Shown here: positions 45-61,932 of the stretch, piece after piece | How the letters are laid out: each line of letters begins with the position of its first letter | How positions within the stretch are numbered: the first letter of the stretch is position 1 | NCBI GenBank assembly: GCA_964436385.1 | Contig: CAYTCO010000002.1 | Span: 12,720-76,719 of the forward strand | Direction of reading: 5' to 3' | Origin: an uncultured Gammaproteobacteria bacterium | GTDB lineage: Bacteria; Patescibacteriota; Microgenomatia; Levybacterales; GWA1-39-11 | Length of the DNA stretch: 64,000 bases | Notes under the pieces: model-generated | The model's input: only the letters and a program-made list of their open reading frames with translations | What the model was told of the DNA's origin: nothing | Databases searched by the model: none | Made by a program: the position numbers and the translations under genes

Positions 45-1166
45 TCAAGACTCTTTCGCATTGTCCCGTATTCTGTAATACATATTTGATCTTGATTGGT
101 ATTCTCGTGTTCTACCATTTCCATCGTCAAATTTCCAAGAGTATTCATTGGCATTTAAATCCAAATCCTTTTCGGGAATAGCTTTAATGTATGGTTTTGG
201 TTTTCCATCTGTTCCGCTTTCTGGATTTGTAGTATCAAGCAAGTACCATTTTCCATCTATTTCGACCGCATTGTTAGCATGGGCTCCGGGCGTCCTCCCG
301 TCAAAAGAAGCATTTGATTTCATAAGCCTAGATGTAATTCCAAGACTCTGAAGAAGCACCTGTGTCACAAGTGCATGGTGCCGACATACAGCTAGTTTTT
401 GATCCGCAATATCGGAGAGCATTACCGTGCCATACATCACTGATTCGGCATTTTCAGAAACCCCGAAATTATAAGGCATTGAAGTGTAGACAAAATCCAT
501 TACTTCAGAAACAACATCACTTTCCCACTCATCTGTGTCTTTACCTTCAGTTTCTTGTATCGTAAGCACCTTTTTGAATAGTGGTTGAGCCTGCTTAAAA
601 AGCTCCTTCTTGTTAATCCTAATTCTTTCACGGCTTCTTAGCTCATTATCCGTATTTCCGTCGCCGCCCATATCAGATAACCCATCGGGGATATAAGCTG
701 GGACTGCTTGCCTTACTATATCGTCAGGAGGAAACGCCGCTCTATCAAGCTTTATATTCAAATCTAGGTATGTATCCGTGTAGCGGCTCGCACGTCTTTC
801 TCGTTCTCTGGGTGCTTCTTTTTCGTCTCCTAATATGGCCAAAAGGTTGTTGCGTCCGTTTTCTAACTTTGAGAATGGGTCAATGTGAAATTCAGCAACC
901 AACCCATCAAACTCATTATCTGACAGATGTGAATTGCGATGGAATCTTTTGTTTCCAAACACATCGTACTCAACTACTGGTGTTGTACCGTAAAGCATTC
1001 CCAATGCAAGAGCTTGCTCTTGAGGCGGGCGTTTTGTAGAACGAGGACTAGATCCATCCAATCCCTCAACGTTATCCATACATAATTTATAACAGAAAGT
1101 AATGTGTCTGATATAATTACCCTCAATGAATATTTCAGTTGGAATAGTCAGGACGCAACCCAACAT
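45..1166 (-). CDS. transglutaminase-like cysteine protease domain protein (hypothetical)
   Basis: 373-aa ORF. The C-terminal part has an ordered Cys/His/Asp context (AVCRHHA ... GAHANNAVEIDGKWYLLDTT) like transglutaminase-core proteases. AAGGA lies about 6 nt upstream of the ATG. Confidence 0.5.
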   Translation of the reverse strand: MLGCVLTIPTEIFIEGNYIRHITFCYKLCMDNVEGLDGSSPRSTKRPPQEQALALGMLYGTTPVVEYDVFGNKRFHRNSHLSDNEFDGLVAEFHIDPFSKLENGRNNLLAILGDEKEAPRERERRASRYTDTYLDLNIKLDRAAFPPDDIVRQAVPAYIPDGLSDMGGDGNTDNELRSRERIRINKKELFKQAQPLFKKVLTIQETEGKDTDEWESDVVSEVMDFVYTSMPYNFGVSENAESVMYGTVMLSDIADQKLAVCRHHALVTQVLLQSLGITSRLMKSNASFDGRTPGAHANNAVEIDGKWYLLDTTNPESGTDGKPKPYIKAIPEKDLDLNANEYSWKFDDGNGRTREYQSRSNMYYRIRDNAKES

Positions 1167-1368
1167 TCAATTCCTTTTCAATTAAAAATAAAACTACCAA
1201 CGCCACGAAAATTCAGAGAAATAATTGCATTAGATAGTAGGGGAAAAAGTGTAGCATATCTATGAGCCTGACTTAGGGACAGGTTGAGTTTCCAGACCAT
1301 TAGGTAATTCAAAAAAAGGATGTTACTATAAAATAGACTGACTTGGAAGGATTTCTGCATTAACCAAT

Positions 1369-2505
1369 ATGGACAGTTCAATTACTATTGCGGAAGAGAA
1401 AACGTCTATGGAGCAACAAAACCAAAGTCCCGTAAAAGCGAGCGGTAATCAAGAGATAGAATCTGCCTATAAATTTACCTGGAGAAAGCTAATTTTGCTT
1501 GCTGTTCCTTTTCCTTTATTTAATTTACTTTCAGGAGTATATAAATTTTATCTAGTATTTTTGATTAATCCTGAGCCAATCAGTTTTCAGAAAACTTTAG
1601 TTGAAGTATTCGTTTCCTTCTTAATATCTCTAGTTATAGCTTTACTGGTTATTTTTTTGACAAGTAAAATTTTAAAAAAAGTAGGTTTTGGTAAAAAGTT
1701 AATCAAATGGACTGTTATAGCACTCGTAATTTCAGTAGCAATCCACTTAGTTCCTGGAATGCGCTTGTTCTTGGCATACGCAAACTCAATTCTTTTTGTA
1801 TTTGCAATTGGAGTTTTCTTTACAGTTTTTATTGTCCCAATCGTTATATTAAGGAAGAAGATACTGCAAGGGAGTAAGGTTGTATACCTAATTCTAATAG
1901 CAGTTTATAGTATTTTTTCGTTTAGCATATTCATGAATTCTCAAAGCATGGAATCTAAAAAAGAAGAATTGAAGCAAGAAGCAAAAACGGATCAACAAAA
2001 AGAAAACAATGAATCACTCAAGTTAAAATATCCAAATATAGTACACATGAAGCCTTCATATATTCCTAAAGAAGTTCAGAATTTAAAAGCAGAAGGATAC
2101 GAGGAGTATTATTCTGGTCTAATTTATACAAGAACTTATTGGTGTTCCAAAACAACCATCTTTTATTCAAGAACCACATTGGCAAATATTGAGAATAAGA
2201 AGCAGTTTGAAGAACTCAGAAGGTTTGCTAGCAATGAACCTCTTCAACTGAGTTCGGGTGGCCGTTCGAGAATAGCCGATTTTGATAACACCAAAGCCGT
2301 ACTACACCTTATGCCGAATCCACAGGTTAATGAAAGCAGTCTAACACTATATTGGTATTCAGAAGATGAAAAATTTGAGCACTCGGTATCCGGCGCACTG
2401 GACTGTCTAGTAACAGGTATTAAATCGAAAGCGCAACAATATATGGATGAAGCGGTGCTTACACGGGCAATTTCTGAACTTAAAAAAGTGGCAAAATCAT
2501 ACTAG
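1369..2505 (+). CDS. hypothetical membrane protein
   Basis: 378-aa ORF. The N-terminal half has several long hydrophobic helices and the C-terminal half looks soluble. No family recognised. Confidence 0.5.
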   Translation: MDSSITIAEEKTSMEQQNQSPVKASGNQEIESAYKFTWRKLILLAVPFPLFNLLSGVYKFYLVFLINPEPISFQKTLVEVFVSFLISLVIALLVIFLTSKILKKVGFGKKLIKWTVIALVISVAIHLVPGMRLFLAYANSILFVFAIGVFFTVFIVPIVILRKKILQGSKVVYLILIAVYSIFSFSIFMNSQSMESKKEELKQEAKTDQQKENNESLKLKYPNIVHMKPSYIPKEVQNLKAEGYEEYYSGLIYTRTYWCSKTTIFYSRTTLANIENKKQFEELRRFASNEPLQLSSGGRSRIADFDNTKAVLHLMPNPQVNESSLTLYWYSEDEKFEHSVSGALDCLVTGIKSKAQQYMDEAVLTRAISELKKVAKSY

Positions 2506-2710: not shown

Positions 2711-3718
2711 ATGCGAAAGGAGGGTGGTTTTGATTCGGTGGCACTCGGAGAGTCTTTTCGGGAAAGGATAATTCGTCCTGAATCAAGAGAAATTTTCATA
2801 TCAAAAATTCCGCAAGAAGAGCTGGTTGATAGTACTCATGCATACATTAACTGTGACGGATTCGGAATAGTGAGGCGGGCCGTTACGCAAAGACCTGACT
2901 GGCCAGATATTGATATACTTCCGGAATTAGTTCCTGCAAAGCTAGGAATATCGGAAGAGGATGCATCACTTACGCAAATATTCAGAGTTGGAGCCTGTAA
3001 TTTTAGATGTTGGTATTGTTTTGTCGACTTTAGATATTTAAAGGCTGACTCTTCACGGGGTGATTTTAAGTCTCCAAGTGATTTAATAGATTTATATGAA
3101 CAAGAAGAGGTCCAAGCTCCTACATTTTACCTGACGGGTGGTCAACCTGATCTTGTGCCAGAATGGACGCTTTGGATGATGGATGAACTTGAAAAAAGAG
3201 GCATGGATAAGACTCATTTTTTATGGCAGGATGATAATCTAAGTTCGCTCTTTCTCTTTGAGAAGTTAACCCCTGAGCAACTCGATCGAATTGCGAAATA
3301 CCCCAATTATGCCCGAGCCACATGCATAAAGGGAATAAGCCCTCAGTCTTTTTCAAGAAATACGGGTGCAGCACCGGAATATTTCGATCTGCAAATAGAA
3401 GCATTGCGAAGGTTGGTGGAAGCAGGTATAGATACCTATACTTATATTACCTTGCTTGGAGAATCGGTCGCGGAAGCTAGAGAAGCGATTCCCTCTCTGA
3501 TGGATAAAATTCAAGAGGAGGTCCATCCAAATATGCTTCTTCGGGTATTTCCCTCGAAGGTAATTGATTTTCCTCAGACCGTACAAAGGGAAAAAGAGTA
3601 TCACATTCAGTTGATGGACAATCAGCAAGCAATGAGGGATATTTGGACAGAAGAGTTGGGAAAAAGATATACTCAGGAGTTATTAAGTCTACCAAAATCA
3701 GAAGTACCACTCACTTAG
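2711..3718 (+). CDS. radical SAM enzyme, subfamily unresolved
   Basis: 335-aa ORF with CNFRCWYC (CxxxCxxC) about 96 aa from the N-terminus, followed by YLTGGQPDL (a GGE-like SAM motif). There is no C-terminal Cys cluster, so no SPASM domain. TTGACA sits at 2685-2690. The exact start is uncertain: AAGGAGGG lies just inside the ORF. Confidence 0.8.
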   Translation: MRKEGGFDSVALGESFRERIIRPESREIFISKIPQEELVDSTHAYINCDGFGIVRRAVTQRPDWPDIDILPELVPAKLGISEEDASLTQIFRVGACNFRCWYCFVDFRYLKADSSRGDFKSPSDLIDLYEQEEVQAPTFYLTGGQPDLVPEWTLWMMDELEKRGMDKTHFLWQDDNLSSLFLFEKLTPEQLDRIAKYPNYARATCIKGISPQSFSRNTGAAPEYFDLQIEALRRLVEAGIDTYTYITLLGESVAEAREAIPSLMDKIQEEVHPNMLLRVFPSKVIDFPQTVQREKEYHIQLMDNQQAMRDIWTEELGKRYTQELLSLPKSEVPLT

Positions 3719-10413: not shown

Positions 10414-11880
10414 ATGGTTTACTACCGCAAATACAGACCTCAAAAAATCTCTGAACTAGATCTTGATACCGTCAGGGAAAAATTAACAGCAATCTTGTCA
10501 TCTAAAGAACTTCCTCATGCATTTCTTTTTACAGGAAGTAAAGGTCTTGGTAAGACATCTGCTGCTAGGATACTGGCAAAAGCAATCAATTGCGAAGCTA
10601 GGGCAGGGGGCACAGGGCAGAGATTGAGTACTCCGACCTCCGAACTAAGCCCTAGTATTGAACCGTGCAACGAATGTGAAGCATGTGCCTCAATTACTAA
10701 TGGATCAAATATTGACGTCTTAGAAATTGATGCTGCTTCAAATGGTGGAGTGGAGGAGATAAGAACTCTGCGTGAAAGAGTAAAATTTGCTTCATCAACA
10801 CTTCGTAAGAAAGTCTACATAATCGACGAAGTGCATATGCTATCAACTGGAGCATTTAACGCACTATTAAAAACGCTTGAAGAACCACCACCACATGTAG
10901 TTTTTATTCTTGCCACGACAGAACTTCATAAATTGCCAGCAACTATTGTATCTCGGGCTTTTCAAGTTCAATTTGAAAAACCAACTACCGAGCAAATAGC
11001 AAGAAGTCTCCAGAGAATAGTTGAGGGGGAAGGTCTTGTGGTAGAGGGCGGAGTCTTAGAAAAAATTTCTGAAATATCCGACAACGCATTTAGGGATGCA
11101 GCTAAAAATCTTGAGGAATTGATGCTGGCATCAAAAAACGAGAAGTTAACTCTAGACCTTTTTGACAGTGTTTTTAGAACGAGTGGATTAGAGGAGGCGG
11201 TGGCAGAGCTTCTGGTAGCTTTATCATTCCGTGATGCAAAAAAAGGGCTTGAGATTATAGTTTCTCTTTCAAATTCAGGTGCAGATTTCAAAATCGTAAC
11301 AAGTAGAATAGTCGATCATTTAAGAGAGCTTTTAATGTTGAGAAATGGGATCGAAAGTAATGCGACTGACATTAAAGATTTAAATCTCACAAATATAAAG
11401 GAATTATTAGAGCTTTCTAGTGAGGCATATGCAGAGCTTAAAATGTCAGTAATCCCCAGTCTGCCACTGGAGCTTATGATTGTGAAGTATTGTATTTTGG
11501 ACAGGGAAGAGGTCGGAGATCGGAGGGCGGAGGAGACAGAAGGCATAAGACATAAGACAGAAGGCAGAAGACAAGAGACAGTAGAGATTAGACAGGAGAA
11601 AAAAAACCAATCACCAATAATCACCAGTCACCAATCACCAACCACGAATTTGCTTCCAAAGCTTATTGCTGAGTTGAATCGAATAAACAAACCTGGGGCG
11701 GCGCTTTTAAGATCTGCAAAAGAGGCAGTACTTTCAGGGGATAGTCTTGCAATTTTAACTCCATTTCCAATACATGCTGATAGATTAAAGTCGGAAAACG
11801 TTCTTTCCGACCTAAAACAAGCTGCAGAGGTAATAGTTGGAAAAAAAGTAGAGGTTGTTATTTCAACTAATGTTGACTAG
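10414..11880 (+). CDS. dnaX: DNA polymerase III subunit gamma/tau
   Basis: 488 aa. YRPQKISEL, Walker A GSKGLGKTS, a Cys-rich zinc module, Walker B IIDEVHML and the TLEEPP and SRA motifs. Confidence 0.9.
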   Translation: MVYYRKYRPQKISELDLDTVREKLTAILSSKELPHAFLFTGSKGLGKTSAARILAKAINCEARAGGTGQRLSTPTSELSPSIEPCNECEACASITNGSNIDVLEIDAASNGGVEEIRTLRERVKFASSTLRKKVYIIDEVHMLSTGAFNALLKTLEEPPPHVVFILATTELHKLPATIVSRAFQVQFEKPTTEQIARSLQRIVEGEGLVVEGGVLEKISEISDNAFRDAAKNLEELMLASKNEKLTLDLFDSVFRTSGLEEAVAELLVALSFRDAKKGLEIIVSLSNSGADFKIVTSRIVDHLRELLMLRNGIESNATDIKDLNLTNIKELLELSSEAYAELKMSVIPSLPLELMIVKYCILDREEVGDRRAEETEGIRHKTEGRRQETVEIRQEKKNQSPIITSHQSPTTNLLPKLIAELNRINKPGAALLRSAKEAVLSGDSLAILTPFPIHADRLKSENVLSDLKQAAEVIVGKKVEVVISTNVD

Positions 11881-11881
11881 C

Positions 11882-11912
11882 AAAACCCCCCTCCGCATAA
11901 AGCTTCGGGGGG
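11882..11912 (-). terminator. stem-loop terminator serving the minus-strand islet genes (possibly bidirectional)
   Basis: CCCC(CC)TCCG-cataaagctt-CGGGGGG. On the minus strand the stem is followed by TTTTG. It lies between the dnaX stop (11880) and the stop of the 104-aa ORF (11947). Confidence 0.5.
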
Positions 11913-11946
11913 CGTTGCACAATGAGAATTTATGGATTTGCTCGGA

Positions 11947-12261
11947 TTACCCGATGCCTGTCTGGACGAGCACAATAAGGGCGATCATCAGGATGGCCGA
12001 AAGGATGAAGAGCAACTCACCGGTTAGCTCCTCCGGATCACCCTTGTTGGCATTCCAGCTCATGACCGCTCCAGCGAATACGCCCCCAATAAGAGAGAGT
12101 GCGATCGGGTAGACGAGAAGATCGAAGTACCCGGCGAACAGGATCACGAGTAAGAAGCAGGCAACATTTACGACGAAATAAATTGCCGATAGAATCTTGC
12201 CCCCAGGATTGCTGTTTCTGCTAGTCCACCAGCCTATGCTGAACATTGGTGTATGATTCAT
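11947..12261 (-). CDS. small membrane protein (104 aa, about 3 TM helices)
   Basis: ORF in the ~50% GC islet. GGGAGGTGAGAAA sits immediately before ATG 12261; the track's upstream start at 12276 would include this RBS. Confidence 0.55.
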   Translation of the reverse strand: MNHTPMFSIGWWTSRNSNPGGKILSAIYFVVNVACFLLVILFAGYFDLLVYPIALSLIGGVFAGAVMSWNANKGDPEELTGELLFILSAILMIALIVLVQTGIG

Positions 12262-12314
12262 TTTCTCACCTCCCATCGGTGAAGACTTGGTGCCCCGTGT
12301 TACCGGGACTTTTT

Positions 12315-12527
12315 CTAGAACTCTTCGAGCTCGTTTTCTTTAAGGCTCAGTCCAGACATGAAAGCGATCAGTATCAGGACGCAAGCCACAACGGCTAAGG
12401 CTAGTGCCAAGGTTTTGTTCCAGTCATTTTGGTAGGTTGCAACAATTACCCCTCCCGCAATTGCGGCAAAAGCAAGCGCAACCACAACAAGTGTCCAGGT
12501 GACTTTAGCATTTGTGTGCGAAAACAT
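12315..12527 (-). CDS. small membrane protein (70 aa, 2 TM helices)
   Basis: AGGAGGTGAGAAA sits immediately before the ATG, so the 15 nt GGAGGTGAGAAAATG are identical to the neighbouring ORF. Two hydrophobic helices. Confidence 0.55.
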   Translation of the reverse strand: MFSHTNAKVTWTLVVVALAFAAIAGGVIVATYQNDWNKTLALALAVVACVLILIAFMSGLSLKENELEEF

Positions 12528-12588
12528 TTTCTCACCTCCTTTCAGAAGTAAGCTTGGTATTCTGCCGTGCTCCGTTTGACGGGGATGC

Positions 12589-12774
12589 TCAGGAAATGAT
12601 GTAAAGGATACAACAGCCAGGATGACGGTCGTTTAATGGGCTTTTGCAGGATTGCTCGTGCCCAATGTCGGTAAAAGTCCTACAGTCCATGCAGTAAACT
12701 GAACAAACTGTAAGGTCACAGACGCTGCAAGTTCTAGGCTTGCCTTCAAGAACGGGTTCTTTCGTAACTGCCAT
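12589..12774 (-). CDS. small cysteine-rich protein (61 aa, 8 Cys)
   Basis: GGAGGGAGAAC precedes ATG 12774. Sequence MAVTKEPVLEGKPRTCSVCDLTVCSVYCMDCRTF...GCCILYIIS. The track start at 12801 would include the RBS. Confidence 0.45.
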   Translation of the reverse strand: MAVTKEPVLEGKPRTCSVCDLTVCSVYCMDCRTFTDIGHEQSCKSPLNDRHPGCCILYIIS

Positions 12775-12977
12775 GTTCTCCCTCCATGGTTTCCACCTCA
12801 TACACAGATATGTACAAAGCGGAAACCACGTGGGGTTTATCCATAAATTTCAAAGTGCCAGCCTCGCAAAGACTCGTGCGAGTCTAGGCGGGCAATAAAA
12901 ATCTTTGAGGCAAATCATAGAAAGCTTGTTCTTTGGTAACCTCAAAAATACTTGGATATTATACACCACGCGTCACC

Positions 12978-13493
12978 CTATAGGAGTTTTTCCTTAATCA
13001 TTGCTTGCACCCAAGGAGCGAGTTGGGAATAGAGTCTTGATTTTTTGTCATACAATTCTTTTTTTGAAACTACTGAATACCCATAGGCAACATCCGTAAC
13101 AATCGTTGGAAGTTTTTTTATCTCACAAACAACCACGTTGCACACTTCGTGCTCTGTATAAATACTAAATTTATCCCTAGCTTTGTAGTATATCGTTCCT
13201 AGGTCATTAGGCTTTCTTAAAAGACTTTTTTTATCCAAATTCCACTCCCTTTTTAAAGTCAAAAGAGTTGCTTCAATCGTGTCTTGTAGTTTTTCTCCGT
13301 CATAGACTTGATGAGAGGAAGAGGTAACATCCAATACTCCATCAAATACAGGATGTTTTCTGTGCTGGACAATAAGATCTCCTTTGTAAAAAATCGCAAC
13401 GGTAAAAGCACGATGCAAAACCGCTTTTTCGTGGGCCTCCCAGCGTTCAATTGCTCCCAATATGTTGCCGCGTTTGTCGCATTTGGCAATCAT
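12978..13493 (-). CDS. idi: isopentenyl-diphosphate delta-isomerase, type 1 (Nudix-like)
   Basis: HEKAVLHRAFTVAIFYKGDLIVQHRK ... SSSH ... YTEHEV matches the IDI-1 pattern. Start chosen at MIAKCDKRGN; the longest ORF extends to 13556. Confidence 0.75.
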   Translation of the reverse strand: MIAKCDKRGNILGAIERWEAHEKAVLHRAFTVAIFYKGDLIVQHRKHPVFDGVLDVTSSSHQVYDGEKLQDTIEATLLTLKREWNLDKKSLLRKPNDLGTIYYKARDKFSIYTEHEVCNVVVCEIKKLPTIVTDVAYGYSVVSKKELYDKKSRLYSQLAPWVQAMIKEKLL

Positions 13494-13574
13494 GATTTTT
13501 TGTTTGTAATAAGCACTCTTTGAGTTTTTCATAAAAGGATTATATAACATCCCCATTATGTTATACTATGCCGC

Positions 13575-14696: not shown

Positions 14697-15736
14697 GTGG
14701 AATTGTCGGATACGGAGTCTATATTCCAAAATACAGAATAAAAGTTGAAGAAATTGCAGCAACTTGGAAAAAGGATGCTAGCGAAATCATATCTGGTCTG
14801 AAGGTGCACCAGAAATCTGTTCCTTCAGAAGACGAGGACGCAGTAACAATGGGTATTGAAGCCTCTAGAAATGCATTAAGTTATGCAGGACTAAGCGCCA
14901 ATAAGATACAAGCCGTTTTTGTTGGTTCTGAGAGTCATCCATATGTTGTTAATCCAACGTCAACTACAATTGCAGATCTACTAGGCTTTGGTCATAATTT
15001 ATTTGCAGCCGATTTTGAATTTGCTTGTAAGGCGGCAACAGCAGCGCTTCAGCTAACTGCTTCTTTCGTAAAAAGTAAATCTATTGACTACGGACTTATT
15101 ATTGGAAGTGACACTGCTCAGGCAAAACCTCATGATGCTCTTGAGTACACTGCTGGTTCTGCAGCTGCTGCATACTTAGTCGGAGGATTACAGTCTGAGA
15201 TAATAGCAAAAATTATAGATACTGTTTCATATTCCTCCGACACACCCGATTTTTGGAGAAGAGAGGGAATAAAATTCCCATCACACGCAGGACGATTTAC
15301 AGGAGAGCCTGCTTATTTTGCTCATATCTTTGGTGCATCAAAAATAATTTTTAAGAAAAACAAAGTGAAGCCCGAGGATTTTACTTACTGTGTTTTCCAC
15401 ATGCCCAACGGAAAATTTCCAAGAGTCGCTGCCCGTGAGTTAGGATTTTCAGATCATCAGTTAGCACCTTCTCTAATTGTTGACCATATAGGAAATCCAT
15501 ATTCTGCTTCGGCTCTTACTGGCCTTGCAGCAGTATTGGATATTGCAAAACCGCATGAGAAGATTTTTGTTGCGTCCTACGGTTCAGGGGCCGGCTCTGA
15601 CGCTTTCATCTTGGAAGTAACACAAAATATATCAAAAAAGGATCGGAGTAAAATTACTGTTTCATCATATCTTGAGCAATCGGAATATATATCATATATA
15701 GAATTTTTAAGAAAAACATATCTTCATCTTTTATGA
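14693..15736 (+). CDS. mvaS: HMG-CoA synthase (archaeal-type, short form)
   Basis: 347 aa. GYGVYIPKYRI, SEDEDAVTMG, a thiolase-fold Cys region and SYGSGAGSDAF. ATGA overlap with the HMGR stop. Confidence 0.9.
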   Translation: MSGIVGYGVYIPKYRIKVEEIAATWKKDASEIISGLKVHQKSVPSEDEDAVTMGIEASRNALSYAGLSANKIQAVFVGSESHPYVVNPTSTTIADLLGFGHNLFAADFEFACKAATAALQLTASFVKSKSIDYGLIIGSDTAQAKPHDALEYTAGSAAAAYLVGGLQSEIIAKIIDTVSYSSDTPDFWRREGIKFPSHAGRFTGEPAYFAHIFGASKIIFKKNKVKPEDFTYCVFHMPNGKFPRVAARELGFSDHQLAPSLIVDHIGNPYSASALTGLAAVLDIAKPHEKIFVASYGSGAGSDAFILEVTQNISKKDRSKITVSSYLEQSEYISYIEFLRKTYLHLL

Positions 15737-22119: not shown

Positions 22120-22464
22120 ATGGATCCGAATTCTGTTCCTTCAGTTGTCGAAAACGTAGAGAAAGACTTGCTAGCGGAAATTGTCGCCAACCTTAAAAGA
22201 AACAAGCTTGATCAGGAAAAAGCACATCTTTTAGCTAAAGAATTTCTTTCCTATTTGCCACCTAAAGATTTTGAGGGCATGATCGCGATACTCCAAAAAA
22301 TGTCAGGACAATATGATGAAGCGCGAGGGGTTCTTATCAAATATCAAGCAATAGCTCAAAAGAATGAGGATTTGGAGAAGGCAAGTCAAATGGCACAGCA
22401 CATAAATCAAGGAAATATTGAAAAAGCGATAGAGATAGCGAAAGGAGGTCGAAATGCCGGGTGA
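22120..22464 (+). CDS. hypothetical small helical protein (module copy 1, gene A)
   Basis: 114 aa. The N-terminal motif DLLAEIVANLKRNKLD...LAKEF is shared with the ORF at 24034. Confidence 0.5.
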   Translation: MDPNSVPSVVENVEKDLLAEIVANLKRNKLDQEKAHLLAKEFLSYLPPKDFEGMIAILQKMSGQYDEARGVLIKYQAIAQKNEDLEKASQMAQHINQGNIEKAIEIAKGGRNAG

Positions 22465-23662
22465 GGGAGGAATGGAAGGCGGAGCTCCTGCTGCTATTGA
22501 AGGAGCCGCTGGGGCTACAGGTAAGGCCGTTAAAACAGCATCAGAAAGTCTTGGTGGAGCACTTGAAAATCTTGGCGAAGCACAAGGAGCAGCTGCCGCT
22601 CTAGGTAGTCTTGCCGAGACTGGTGCTGGAGAAATACCTGGTCAAGATATAGACAAGTGGATAGGCGATCCTCTAAAAGAGACCGGTGCAGGGGAAATTC
22701 CTGGACAAGACATCGACAAGTGGGTAGTAGAACAGCCCTCAACGGCTCAAGAAGCAGTGCCAGCTCAGATACCAAGTATTGGAAAAGCTCCTGCGGTAGC
22801 TACCCAAGCAGAAGCAGTTCCAAACTCCACACAAGCAGGCGTAGGTGAGATTTCACCAGGTGATGTTGCAAGAGCGCTTGAGAAACCTGCCGCCGGACAA
22901 CCTGCAAAACCTGAAGCAACTCCAAATAAAGTTATTCCTGGAGCTTCCGAGGCAACAACTCCTGCCGTATTAGCCCCAGAACAAACAATTGATGATCCAG
23001 TCGACAGAGTTGCTGCACAGGCGACAGAACGACCTGCTGTTACTCAACCAACAGAAACTGTCCAAGCGGCTGCTGAGGCTCCAAACCCAGCAGTTGAAAC
23101 AGCGGCGGAAGATGTTGCAAGCCCTGGCACTATAGAGGCGGAACAAAACAGCGGCGAAACAGAGGAAGCAACAGAAATAACACCTGAAGATATAGCTAAG
23201 GCAGACGCAGAAGGAGCAGAAAATGATGCAGCTGCAGCTCAGGAAGCAGAAGCCGTTACCGAAACAGCAGTCGAGGCAAGAAGTATAGAACAGCAAACAG
23301 AAGAAATGGTTACCCTTACAGAGCAATTAAAAGGTCTTCGAGAACAACAGACTGAGATAGCAAATAAAATTGATGAGGCCATGGCCAAGATAGACTCTCT
23401 TCGAGATGCAATTAGGCAAGCTATGGAAAAAGCTCCGCCTGAGCAAAAACAACAATTCAGCCTATTGCTAAGATTAATTCAAGCCTTCTTTGACATGTTT
23501 TATATAGACGCCAGAGTAGAGGGTGGCGGAATACGTCAAGCGAGGAACAGAGAAATTCAAGAGAAAAGAGCAAATACACAACAAAAACCTGCTGACACCA
23601 AAACCCCACCACCTCCACCTCCTCCAGCTCCAGCACCAGCATCCGCACCTCTAATTTTCTAG
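22454..23662 (+). CDS. hypothetical Ala/Glu/Pro-rich protein with coiled-coil and poly-Pro tail (module copy 1, gene B)
   Basis: 402 aa. AAAGGAGG lies 5 nt upstream, and the gene overlaps its upstream neighbour by 11 nt. Internal duplicate ETGAGEIPGQDIDKW occurs twice. C-terminal PPPPPPPAPAPA. Confidence 0.5.
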   Translation: MPGEGGMEGGAPAAIEGAAGATGKAVKTASESLGGALENLGEAQGAAAALGSLAETGAGEIPGQDIDKWIGDPLKETGAGEIPGQDIDKWVVEQPSTAQEAVPAQIPSIGKAPAVATQAEAVPNSTQAGVGEISPGDVARALEKPAAGQPAKPEATPNKVIPGASEATTPAVLAPEQTIDDPVDRVAAQATERPAVTQPTETVQAAAEAPNPAVETAAEDVASPGTIEAEQNSGETEEATEITPEDIAKADAEGAENDAAAAQEAEAVTETAVEARSIEQQTEEMVTLTEQLKGLREQQTEIANKIDEAMAKIDSLRDAIRQAMEKAPPEQKQQFSLLLRLIQAFFDMFYIDARVEGGGIRQARNREIQEKRANTQQKPADTKTPPPPPPPAPAPASAPLIF

Positions 23663-26827: not shown

Positions 26828-27439
26828 TTATCTTTGTATAAGACCTAATACAATTGCCCAGAAGATTCCCCAAACGACAATAAATACAACTCCAAGAACG
26901 ACAAGTACAGGAAGTGAAATCTTAGCTTTCTTCTTTGCCTCACCTGCTGCAGGGGCTGCACCTGGAACTGGCTTTATGGTACCGCCATTAAAAGAGAAAG
27001 TATTCCCTTCACTAATTGGTCTTGCTGGAGTACTTGTTAAAGCTTGTTCTGCATTTGTTCCAAGGGGTGCGCCTAGACTCGGAGAGGCTGGCCCGCCTAG
27101 ACTCGGAGAGGCTGGCATTTCGGGTACACTGGCCATCGTGGGTTGTGTGGGAGCTGGCTCTGGCCCGCCTAGACTCGGAGAGGCTGGCATTGGTTGTTGG
27201 GGTTGTACCCCTAAAGATGGCATTTGTGGAGACATATCAGCTGGTGGCCCGCCTAGACTCGGCGAGGCTGGTGGCGGAACGGTTGTGGATTGCGCTGGGC
27301 TTTGAACAGATGTTGGCCCGCCTAGACTCGGCGAGGCTGGAAGAGCTCCATTGCCTGATACTGGTACCCCCTTGGTATTCATTACTCTGTCATAAATTTC
27401 TTTTAGCTCTGGCGTGAGGTTGGTTTTCTTTACATCCAT
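26828..27439 (-). CDS. Pro-rich repeat protein with C-terminal transmembrane anchor
   Basis: 203 aa with five ASPSLG(G/A)P motifs and a C-terminal hydrophobic helix, LPVLVVLGVVFIVVWGIFWAIVLGLI. Confidence 0.6.
   Translation of the reverse strand: MDVKKTNLTPELKEIYDRVMNTKGVPVSGNGALPASPSLGGPTSVQSPAQSTTVPPPASPSLGGPPADMSPQMPSLGVQPQQPMPASPSLGGPEPAPTQPTMASVPEMPASPSLGGPASPSLGAPLGTNAEQALTSTPARPISEGNTFSFNGGTIKPVPGAAPAAGEAKKKAKISLPVLVVLGVVFIVVWGIFWAIVLGLIQR
27071..27340. repeat. five dispersed copies of a 21-nt unit GCCTAGACTCGG(A/C)GAGGCTGG
   Basis: Copies at 27071-27091, 27095-27115, 27167-27187, 27251-27271 and 27320-27340. Four are extended to GGCCCGCC.... They encode the ASPSLGG motif on the minus strand. 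Confidence 0.85.
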
Positions 27440-47205: not shown

Positions 47206-47290
47206 TGCCGCGGGAGGGACTCGAACCCTCATGACCAAAAAAGATCATTAGTTTTTGAGACTAACCTGTATACCATTCCAGCACCGCGGC
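47206..47290 (-). tRNA. tRNA-Leu (anticodon CAA), class II with long variable arm
   Basis: Manual cloverleaf: acceptor GCCGCGG/CCGCGGC, D stem CTG/CAG with a GG loop, anticodon stem TTAGT/ACTAA with loop CTCAAAA, a 17-nt variable arm (TGATC-TTTTTT-GGTCA), T arm GAGGG-TTCGAGT-CCCTC and discriminator A. CCA is not encoded. Confidence 0.9.
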
Positions 47291-60975: not shown

Positions 60976-61932
60976 GTGGAAGATAAAAAGACCCTACCCT
61001 CAAAGCTAGATAAACACATTCACACATACCTTGAGTATTTGGAAATTGAGAAAAACGCCTCAAAGCTTACAATCCGTAACTACAAATTCTACCTGAGTCG
61101 CTTTACTGGTTGGTTTGAGGCTAATCACGCTCAAAAAAACATAAATGACATAAATATTGAGTTAATTAGAAGATATAGAATATGGTTATCTGACTATGTT
61201 GATGACAAAGGAATAACTCTAATGCGTGTTACCCAGAGTTATCACATAATAGCACTTCGCTCTTTCTTACGATTTTTAATCAGAAACGATCACGATACTT
61301 TATCTCCTGAAAAAATAGATCTGCCAAAAGGTGAAAGCAAAAGCCTAAAATTTTTGGGGCGTGATCATTTGCGTGAGCTTATGAATTCAGTTGACACCTC
61401 AACGGAAAGAGGTCTTCGTGACCGCTCAATACTTGAATTGCTATTCTCAACTGGTCTTCGGGTATCTGAGTTATGTAGGCTTAACAGGGACCAAATGAAC
61501 TTCAAAACTCAGGAATTTGGAGTAATTGGGAAAGGTGGGAGAGCAAGAATAGTCTTCCTGTCAGACACCGCTATTTTTTGGTTACAAAAGTATTTTGAAG
61601 TTCGGGAAGACAATTTTCAACCTGTATTTATTAGGTACGCAAAAGGAATAGATCCGATAAATCAGGGAGAGCGGATGAGGCTTACTCCCCGCTCTGTTGA
61701 GCGAATTGTCAGTAAATATGTAAGGCGTGCAAAGCTCCCGGTTGATGCGACACCCCACACCCTTCGTCATAGTTTTGCAACTGATCTTCTATATAATGGG
61801 GCTGATTTGCGCTCAGTTCAGGAAATGCTTGGTCACAAAAATATAAGCACAACGCAAATTTATACTCATGTAACTAACCCACAACTTAAAAATGTCCACC
61901 GCAAGTTTCATCAAGGGAATAAAAGACAATAA
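60976..61932 (+). CDS. tyrosine recombinase, XerC/XerD-like
   Basis: 318 aa with a GTG start. The N-terminal SAM-like domain (YLEYLEIEKNAS..T), then GLRVSEL, HTLRHSFATDLL and LGHKNISTTQIYTHV (catalytic R-H-R-Y context). Confidence 0.85.
   Translation: MEDKKTLPSKLDKHIHTYLEYLEIEKNASKLTIRNYKFYLSRFTGWFEANHAQKNINDINIELIRRYRIWLSDYVDDKGITLMRVTQSYHIIALRSFLRFLIRNDHDTLSPEKIDLPKGESKSLKFLGRDHLRELMNSVDTSTERGLRDRSILELLFSTGLRVSELCRLNRDQMNFKTQEFGVIGKGGRARIVFLSDTAIFWLQKYFEVREDNFQPVFIRYAKGIDPINQGERMRLTPRSVERIVSKYVRRAKLPVDATPHTLRHSFATDLLYNGADLRSVQEMLGHKNISTTQIYTHVTNPQLKNVHRKFHQGNKRQ

Follow-up and report, generated by a model that had tools for sequence, protein, structure and literature searches.

A Candidate Accessory Small-Protein Operon in a Variable Slot between idi-like and dnaX Genes of a Probable Microgenomates-Type Bacterium

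Phage morons are add-on units of phage and prophage genomes that are transcribed autonomously and are recognized as extra DNA of different GC content, carrying their own promoter and terminator together with small cargo, often membrane proteins (PMC3594210). Here, we describe an element of comparable layout in a 64,000-nucleotide stretch of contig CAYTCO010000002.1 from an uncultured bacterium; we refer to this whole stretch as the window. The element, which we call the islet, spans positions 11881-12977 and fills the entire convergent intergenic gap (1097 bp) between the stop codon of dnaX (11878-11880) and that of an idi-like gene (12978-12980). It holds three small minus-strand open reading frames (ORFs), A104, B70, and C61, each behind a strong Shine-Dalgarno (SD) site. 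Like a moron, the islet is extra DNA, located between two genes that lie 2 bp apart in the related locus L087, and it differs from its surroundings in GC content (0.483 versus 0.387) and in GC content at third codon positions (GC3; 0.56 versus 0.32 ± 0.03). It also has a candidate TATAAT element (12963-12958), with no −35 box, and a hairpin followed by UUUUG (11881-11914). Unlike a moron, it sits between chromosomal housekeeping genes, has no phage genes nearby, and gave no match to phage records, PHROGs, or IMG/VR. The islet thus appears to resemble a moron in layout and likely behavior, and we do not place it in that class. Nor does it look like an integrase- or tRNA-associated genomic island, as no integrase, tRNA, or direct repeats flank it and the nearest recombinase lies 48 kb away.

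We interpret the islet as an accessory small-protein operon occupying a variable slot between the idi-like gene and dnaX, a reading that we favor with modest confidence. In kind, it is a family-less example of a common feature, the lineage-specific small-protein islet. Its parts are as follows:

12958..12963, minus strand: candidate −10 box TATAAT behind GTGGTG, read from the sequence, 14 nt past the idi-like stop codon
12775..12951, minus strand: structured 5′ leader of ~177 nt with three hairpins, identified by folding against shuffles
12858..12893, minus strand: second leader hairpin, GCCCGCCTAGACTCG[cacgagtcttt]GCGAGGCTGGCA, a repeat-unit copy with an 11-nt insert
12780..12835, minus strand: third leader hairpin, with a 21-bp stem, directly upstream of C61, identified by repeat search and folding
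12589..12774, minus strand: C61, an ORF with an SD site, 61 aa with 8 Cys (CxxC-x4-C-x3-CxxC, then C, then CC)
12315..12527, minus strand: B70, an ORF with an SD site, 70 aa with two hydrophobic helices (approximately residues 12-32 and 40-60) and an acidic C-terminal tail
11947..12261, minus strand: A104, an ORF with an SD site, 104 aa with three hydrophobic helices
11881..11914, minus strand: intrinsic terminator, a G/C stem followed by UUUUG (−24.7 kcal/mol, z −2.6)
11927..11937 and 12839-12849, no strand: 11-nt perfect inverted repeat, AATTTATGGAT / ATCCATAAATT, bracketing the three ORFs

The initial annotation had described three minus-strand mini-ORFs encoding about three transmembrane (TM) helices, two TM helices, and eight cysteines, respectively, and the hydropathy profiles are consistent with that description. 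There is a good case, built from sequence features, that A104 and B70 are coding. Both products have a grand average of hydropathy of ~1.0 with clear TM-length hydrophobic windows, both ORFs show near-optimal SD spacing, and both were independently predicted by gene callers (A104 as P0001). The GC content of A104 by codon position (0.50/0.38/0.65) follows a typical coding pattern. In B70, the variant contig L003 has two single-nucleotide polymorphisms (SNPs), both of them synonymous changes at third codon positions, and no non-synonymous SNP was seen. C61, for which an alternative ATG at 12801 would yield a product of 70 aa, is probably coding, though not securely so. Its SD site is good and the RNA structure of its region is unremarkable (z −0.8), both of which favor a coding role.

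The putative promoter would place the transcription start at approximately position 12951. The leader that follows (fold of 12760-12945, minus strand) has a predicted energy of −70.5 kcal/mol (z −5.85), and none of 200 shuffled sequences was as stable. Comparison with Rfam returned no family at the gathering score; the sole matches were microRNA-like hairpins far under threshold. In the third hairpin, the basal CCC is paired with the GGG of the first SD site, GGAGGG, whose context ahead of C61 reads GGAGGGAGAACATG. B70 and A104 share an identical 15-mer, GGAGGTGAGAAAATG, at 12525-12539 and 12259-12273; two matches compare with 0.18 expected, and two were reached in 2 of 100 shuffles. This reliance on strong SD sites is unusual for the genome. 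Among a host reference set comprising the 51 window genes of at least 150 aa, SD matches reach at least 5 nt in 7 and are absent from 20, compared with strong sites at all three islet ORFs. Strong SD sites also precede a few other window genes, namely those at 22454, 24446, and 35376. The GGAGG-type sites, the 15 nt shared by the two membrane ORFs, the SD-poor host, and the terminal GC-rich hairpin with its U-tract, all pointed out in the initial annotation, were confirmed here. The U-tract of the hairpin is on the minus strand only, with none on the dnaX strand.

The 11-nt inverted repeat has an imperfect outward extension (GCAC..GA), and its two arms are base-paired when the full transcript is folded to minimum free energy. 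By our estimate, chance alone would yield ~0.4 such pairs in the region, making the repeat weak evidence. We set aside the idea that the long hairpin and this repeat are attC- or MITE-like, as no core-site motifs are present and the repeat is within chance.

Taken together, these features suggest how the islet might work. It would be transcribed independently of idi from its own −10 box, with transcripts ending at the hairpin-plus-U terminator, and the last leader hairpin would gate translation of the first cistron, C61, by pairing half of its SD site. A104 and B70 would be membrane-inserted and, possibly joined by a Cys-rich, metal- or redox-binding partner, would form an accessory envelope module. 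By analogy with phage-moron and accessory-islet cargo, our weakly held guess is that they could act as a small membrane-active or protective pair.

The base composition of the islet sets it apart from the window. The ~50% GC reported between dnaX and idi corresponds to 48.3% versus a mean of 38.7% for 1.1-kb stretches (sd 0.028; z 3.5), and the tetranucleotide distance is also raised (z ~2.4), so both the sliding-window GC and the tetranucleotide comparison confirm the deviation. Three of the 60-nt GC counts offered initially were reproduced (32 at 12001-12060, 30 at 12421-12480, and 20 at 14701-14760); the fourth, at 1501-1560, is 14 rather than 17. The islet is the second GC-richest 1.1-kb stretch of the window after 22431-23527 (0.491), and composition jumps sharply at exactly the two bounding stop codons. 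GC3 reaches 0.65 in A104, 0.51 in B70, and 0.47 in C61 (0.559 pooled), compared with 0.319 ± 0.034 in the 51 host genes. Because GC3 is raised in all three ORFs, the GC anomaly is not just a matter of amino acid composition. Synonymous codon choice has moved toward C- or G-ending codons, with TTC used at 9 of 12 positions (19% in the host) and ATC at 9 of 19 (12% in the host). The non-coding parts of the islet are deviant as well, with a GC content of 0.43-0.53 versus mostly 0.30-0.38 in host intergenic DNA. Strong SD sites cannot account for the high GC3, since host genes with strong SD sites keep ordinary values (0.26-0.38; rpsU, 0.42). Other GC-rich spots differ in kind: the genes at 22454-23662 and 26828-27439 have GC3 values of 0.26 and 0.34, respectively, and are GC-rich because their products are rich in Ala, Gly, and Pro.

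The first of these genes, 22454-23662 (plus strand), is in the stretch of the window that ranks highest in both GC content and tetranucleotide deviation. The gene encodes a 402-aa low-complexity protein rich in Ala, Gly, and Glu with weak Pfam matches only, and it combines the strongest SD site of the window (AAGGAGGT) with its GC3 of 0.26.

Comparison with related loci supports the view that the islet is accessory rather than core. A metagenome scan with the idi-like protein returned 32 loci at 42-70% identity, of which three keep the convergent idi-dnaX arrangement. In L087, whose idi-like protein is 70% identical, the idi-like gene (287..820, plus strand) and dnaX (823..2262, minus strand) meet with stop codons 2 bp apart, and the slot is empty. 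In L089 and L092 (57-60% identical), the gap measures 0.77-0.89 kb and contains a different three-gene cassette, so the islet is not conserved core genome. These cassettes share with the islet the slot, the strand, a TATAAT element, a structured leader, three SD-led ORFs, a GC-rich hairpin terminator, and high GC3. The −10-type elements lie at the equivalent spot, 26-36 nt past the idi stop codon (CGTGGTGGTATAAT in L089 and TGGTATAAT in L092). They are followed by a long-hairpin leader, three small ORFs led by AGGAGG, and a GCCCTCC...GGAGGGC terminator with TTTC. The first gene of the cargo encodes a TM protein carrying a WWSQDH motif, the second a zinc finger of the form CxxCxGxG, and the third a CPxC...CxxC zinc ribbon. 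The cassette GC content is 46-47% versus 38-41% in the hosts, and GC3 is 0.55-0.64 versus 0.32-0.39. The cargo is homologous between L089 and L092, whose islet DNA is 65% identical compared with 73% for idi. In contrast, gene order and TM count differ from those of the window, and no homology between window cargo and L089/L092 cargo was detected, with non-significant results from BLASTP (E 0.29), hhalign (probability <1%), blastn, and tblastx.

As the slot is empty in one lineage and holds a different, equally GC3-rich cassette in another, cargo appears to be exchanged at this site. The cargo of the slot would have arrived or been replaced via horizontal transfer or recombination rather than by the ordinary vertical descent of a core gene. 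A contig scan with DnaX gave no usable synteny; the matches listed were distant relatives of at most 51% identity sharing the conserved AAA+ motif.

Several results weigh against the reading of an accessory operon. At the GC content of the islet, ORF lengths are within chance, as an ORF of at least 104 aa arose in 18% of shuffles and three same-strand ORFs of at least 61 aa in 6.5%. C61 has a flat GC profile by codon position (0.44/0.48/0.47), its single population SNP is non-synonymous, and its AlphaFold model, obtained with no alignment input, is uninformative (pLDDT 46). No record of its product exists in the protein collection; therefore, gene callers skip C61. The promoter has no recognizable −35 box and was missed by a consensus promoter scan. 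High GC3 has been upheld over a long divergence in L089 and L092 and cannot date an import. Gain and loss of the islet are indistinguishable because the window, L087, and L089 lineages are approximately equidistant (identities among these three are 70/60/61% for idi, 49/50/47% for DnaX, and 56/62/58% for YbeY). The leader holds a patch of a repeat resident elsewhere in the genome, so at least that part of the leader was shaped here. To these must be added the absence of an integrase, tRNA, or direct repeat at the islet flanks; the sole tRNA of the window is at 47206-47290 and its sole tyrosine recombinase at 60976-61932.

Furthermore, judged by sequence comparison, A104, B70, and C61 are strict orphans that provide neither a donor nor a functional anchor. 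Searches of the three ORFs against Pfam, PHROGs, NCBIfam, and PADLOC gave nothing significant, with the TsaA, SLATT, and PycTM profiles matching at E 0.015-0.1, far under their cut-offs. In a word-indexed search of 5.8 billion protein clusters, A104 and B70 found themselves only and C61 found nothing. An exhaustive HMMER search of 1.84 billion representatives with A104 returned itself and two spurious proteins; we rejected these two as tandem-repeat proteins whose score is the sum of 8-11 repeats of a weak 22-residue match. PDB sequences and IMG/VR each gave no match for A104 or C61, and the islet DNA matched no phage or plasmid record. The homologue search proposed for the three peptides therefore came back empty. 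The initial annotation is partly supported: its observation is sound and beyond chance, and the islet is accessory, compositionally deviant at all classes of sites, and made up of small membrane ORFs. The term "foreign" overreaches, as no donor, mobility gene, tRNA, integrase, or direct repeat was found, and so do the functions suggested for it.

A possible but less probable alternative is that the islet is an old resident locus, ancestral to the window and to L089/L092 and lost in L087, whose short proteins have changed past recognition. Selection, perhaps on mRNA structure or stability or on translation efficiency, would have preserved its high GC content, high GC3, and strong SD sites. In favor of this explanation, the window and L089/L092 agree in slot, strand, order of parts, elevated GC3, and the combination of Cys-rich with TM products. 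Because L089 and L092 keep their GC3 despite 65% mutual DNA identity, raised GC3 can be a long-maintained cassette feature in the clade rather than a fading trace of recent import. Similar promoter-proximal blocks occur as well, with CGTGGTG(G)TATAAT followed ~30 nt on by GCTTTCT(T)ATGATT, and A104 shares with the L089 TM protein an I-x-WW-[ST]...IL motif ahead of the first helix. The raised GC3 of rpsU and a SNP density in the islet equal to that of the flanks point in the same direction. Against it, the alignment of the promoter-proximal leader between the window and L089 is marginal (z 2.1, matched by 5% of shuffles), and the protein comparisons described above were non-significant. Gene order is Cys-TM-TM in the window versus TM-zinc finger-zinc finger in L089/L092, and L087 retains no remnant of the locus.

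We also weighed two functional proposals raised in the initial annotation, a small membrane toxin system and a peptide with an immunity or export pair, neither of which gained a homologue or family tie. In the first, A104 and/or B70 would be a type I-like membrane toxin curbed by a plus-strand cis-antisense RNA over the A104 start. The products are small and very hydrophobic, with two or three predicted TM helices and, in B70, a charged C-terminal tail, as in type I toxins and holin-like proteins. Promoter-like (12167-12195) and terminator-like (12286-12316, a hairpin plus T) sequences on the plus strand could mark the ends of a ~110-nt antisense RNA that would overlap the SD site and start codon of A104. 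However, such sites are as numerous as in shuffles (2 versus 2.0 promoter-like and 2 versus 1.6 terminator-like). Most type I toxins are shorter than 60 aa, with a single TM helix; at 70 and 104 aa with two and three helices, the islet proteins are larger, they match no family beyond the three subthreshold profiles named above, and no endolysin or lysis genes lie near the islet. We regard this explanation as improbable.

The peptide proposal, in which C61 would be a Cys-rich bacteriocin or a precursor of a ribosomally synthesized and post-translationally modified peptide (RiPP) with B70 and A104 providing immunity or export, appears just as improbable. A Cys-rich ORF does come first in the operon, followed by two small membrane proteins. 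With 8 Cys in 61 residues and its CxxC and CxxxCxxC motifs, C61 recalls SCIFF/ranthipeptide precursors and zinc ribbons, a likeness of motif only. C61 is, however, the least secure of the three ORFs, its model is of low confidence, and its sequence contains no double-glycine or other recognizable leader and has no match in Pfam, NCBIfam, or PDB. No radical-SAM protein, other maturation enzyme, or ABC exporter is encoded adjacent to it. The nearest radical-SAM gene (2711-3718) is ~9 kb away, and the neighbors are housekeeping and mevalonate genes (idi, HMG-CoA genes, thiolase, kinases, dnaX, and ybeY).

The structured leader connects the islet to a second locus in the window, which contains the following feature:

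27064..27344, plus strand: five copies of a 25-32-nt unit, GGCCCGCCTAGACTCGG(A/C)GAGGCTGG, inside the minus-strand gene 26828-27439

The copies are spaced by 24, 72, 84, and 69 nt. The gene encodes a 203-aa protein with PASPSLGGP repeats, specified by the unit, and a C-terminal membrane anchor; a Pfam scan of the product gave no match. The leader hairpin at 12858-12893 is one 27-nt copy of the unit, antisense to the gene, plus the 11-nt insert. The exact 15-mer and GCGAGGCTGG recur four to five times at 27064-27344 (plus strand) without this insert. Six matches to the repeat unit occur in the window versus 0.36 expected, and the unit is absent from the related loci, from 13 kb of extra flanking genome, and from IMG/VR. 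As a consequence of this arrangement, the leader RNA would be perfectly complementary (15 + 12 nt) to four to five sites in the 26828-27439 mRNA; a single calculation puts the energy of the duplex at −53.7 kcal/mol. Possible explanations would involve a captured patch of resident DNA, a spreading short palindromic repeat, or a trans-antisense link.

Extending the last of these, the islet could be primarily an RNA locus, whose leader or transcript functions, for instance, as a trans-antisense regulator of 26828-27439, the ORFs being partly or wholly incidental. The stability of the leader and its complementarity to the repeat gene are what such a locus would predict, and structured RNAs typically stand out by high GC content where the genome is AT-rich. 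Counting against it are the lack of an Rfam match, the ordinary folding of the C61 region, and the SD spacing, TM hydropathy, coding-like GC periodicity, and exclusively synonymous B70 SNPs of the two membrane ORFs; the shared motif could, moreover, be simply a captured DNA patch. We consider this explanation very doubtful. A reading of the whole islet as structured RNA was likewise tried and set aside, as only the leader stands out.

More speculatively, and with little expectation that all of it holds, the idi/dnaX gap may be a dedicated slot for swapped, GC3-rich, SD-driven three-gene modules with a leader that additionally acts in trans on the 26828-27439 mRNA. If this is true, leader pairing would tie the orphan membrane proteins, at the level of expression, to a membrane-anchored surface repeat protein.

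Finally, we examined independent assemblies of the locus. The exact B70 product is present on 17 contigs. Six of these, bearing three accession prefixes, were fetched and are 99.8-100% identical to the window; they derive from runs ERR8482633, ERR8482638, ERR8482639, SRR12762303, SRR12762304, and ERR14146630. Four of the six span both islet junctions, and in L003, the most divergent contig, SNP density is alike in the islet and its flanks. Within the population, the islet is stable. NCBI assembly GCA_020049755.1 includes a contig with another gene of this genome. Because independent assemblies from several runs carry identical joins, we discount almost entirely an assembly chimera with DNA from a higher-GC organism, a concern raised initially for which the abrupt composition change at exactly the two stop codons is the sole support.

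The accessory operon that we favor is bordered by two genes of different standing:

10414-11880, plus strand: dnaX (DNA_pol3_delta2, E 2e-36; AAA, E 5e-11; gamma domain III, E 4e-4)
13556..12978, minus strand: idi-like gene, 192 aa, a distant match to type 1 IPP isomerase (IDI-1)

Further neighbors are ybeY and a mevalonate operon, which the idi-like gene adjoins. The idi-like protein matches the NCBIfam model PRK03759 at E 9e-12 (45 bits, under the 127-bit cut-off) and human IDI2 in PDB at E 4.4e-8 across residues 22-187, and a Pfam scan of it gave no match. Judged by these comparisons, the name idi seems acceptable for a divergent IDI-1 relative. Gene callers choose later start codons for it (giving 184 or 171 aa), and its relatives align from approximately residue 16. 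The sequence reads ...DV[TS]SSSHQ... across the whole family (12978-13556, minus strand, and L087-L118). Canonical IDI-1 enzymes have a catalytic Cys at this position (e.g., CCSHP in eukaryotic IDI1). Because SSSHQ replaces the catalytic-Cys motif, the active site of this IDI-1-like family may be non-canonical. The start codons of the idi-like gene and of the HMG-CoA reductase gene diverge and lie 18 bp apart (13557-13574); therefore, each promoter must be inside the other gene.

The mevalonate genes beside the islet encode HMG-CoA reductase, HMG-CoA synthase, thiolase, two kinases, a decarboxylase, and IDI-1. Such a gene set has been reported for the candidate phyla radiation (CPR), especially Microgenomates (PMC6107057). 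The complete bacterial-type set in the window suggests a probable Microgenomates-type CPR organism, as a pointer rather than a proof. In L089 (4926-5990) and L092 (428-1483), the idi-like gene has a full-length LytB/IspH gene immediately upstream; the L089 copy, the only one scanned, matches Pfam at E 2e-67. IspH is an enzyme of the methylerythritol phosphate pathway, whereas the idi-like gene of the window adjoins mevalonate-pathway genes.

Three 21-nt tandem repeats, as well as a duplicated ACCAATCACCAA, occur in the part of dnaX that encodes the C-terminal linker (11533-11641). An A8 run (11599-11606) at codon 396 of 488 creates the slippery heptamer A AAA AAC right behind AGGAG; a −1 shift there would add 22 residues before a stop codon and a +1 shift would add 4. 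A short gamma product made by frameshifting or slippage has been described for the dnaX genes of E. coli and Thermus. The A8 run is thus a candidate site for a short gamma-like product via frameshifting or transcriptional slippage.

In many window genes that lack an SD site, a TATAAT-like box precedes the start codon by only 6-10 nt (e.g., upstream of 8377, 13575, 32260 on the minus strand, 53506, and 63103). This spacing suggests that leaderless mRNAs may be widespread in the organism. The tyrosine recombinase gene 60976-61932 (plus strand) encodes Phage_integrase and SAM-like N-terminal domains and lies beside a cellulase-family gene, 48 kb from the islet. It is probably of the Xer type and has no evident link to the islet.

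These findings do not overturn current understanding, nor do they make a long-standing question testable. Their most transferable message is one of caution: anomalous GC content and GC3 combined with strong SD sites are, on their own, no proof of recent foreign origin. If its ORFs are expressed, the islet would enlarge the little-known small proteome of the CPR by three small proteins that belong to no family, of which two are membrane proteins, and the idi/dnaX gap would represent a variable slot beside the mevalonate genes that can be surveyed across Microgenomates.

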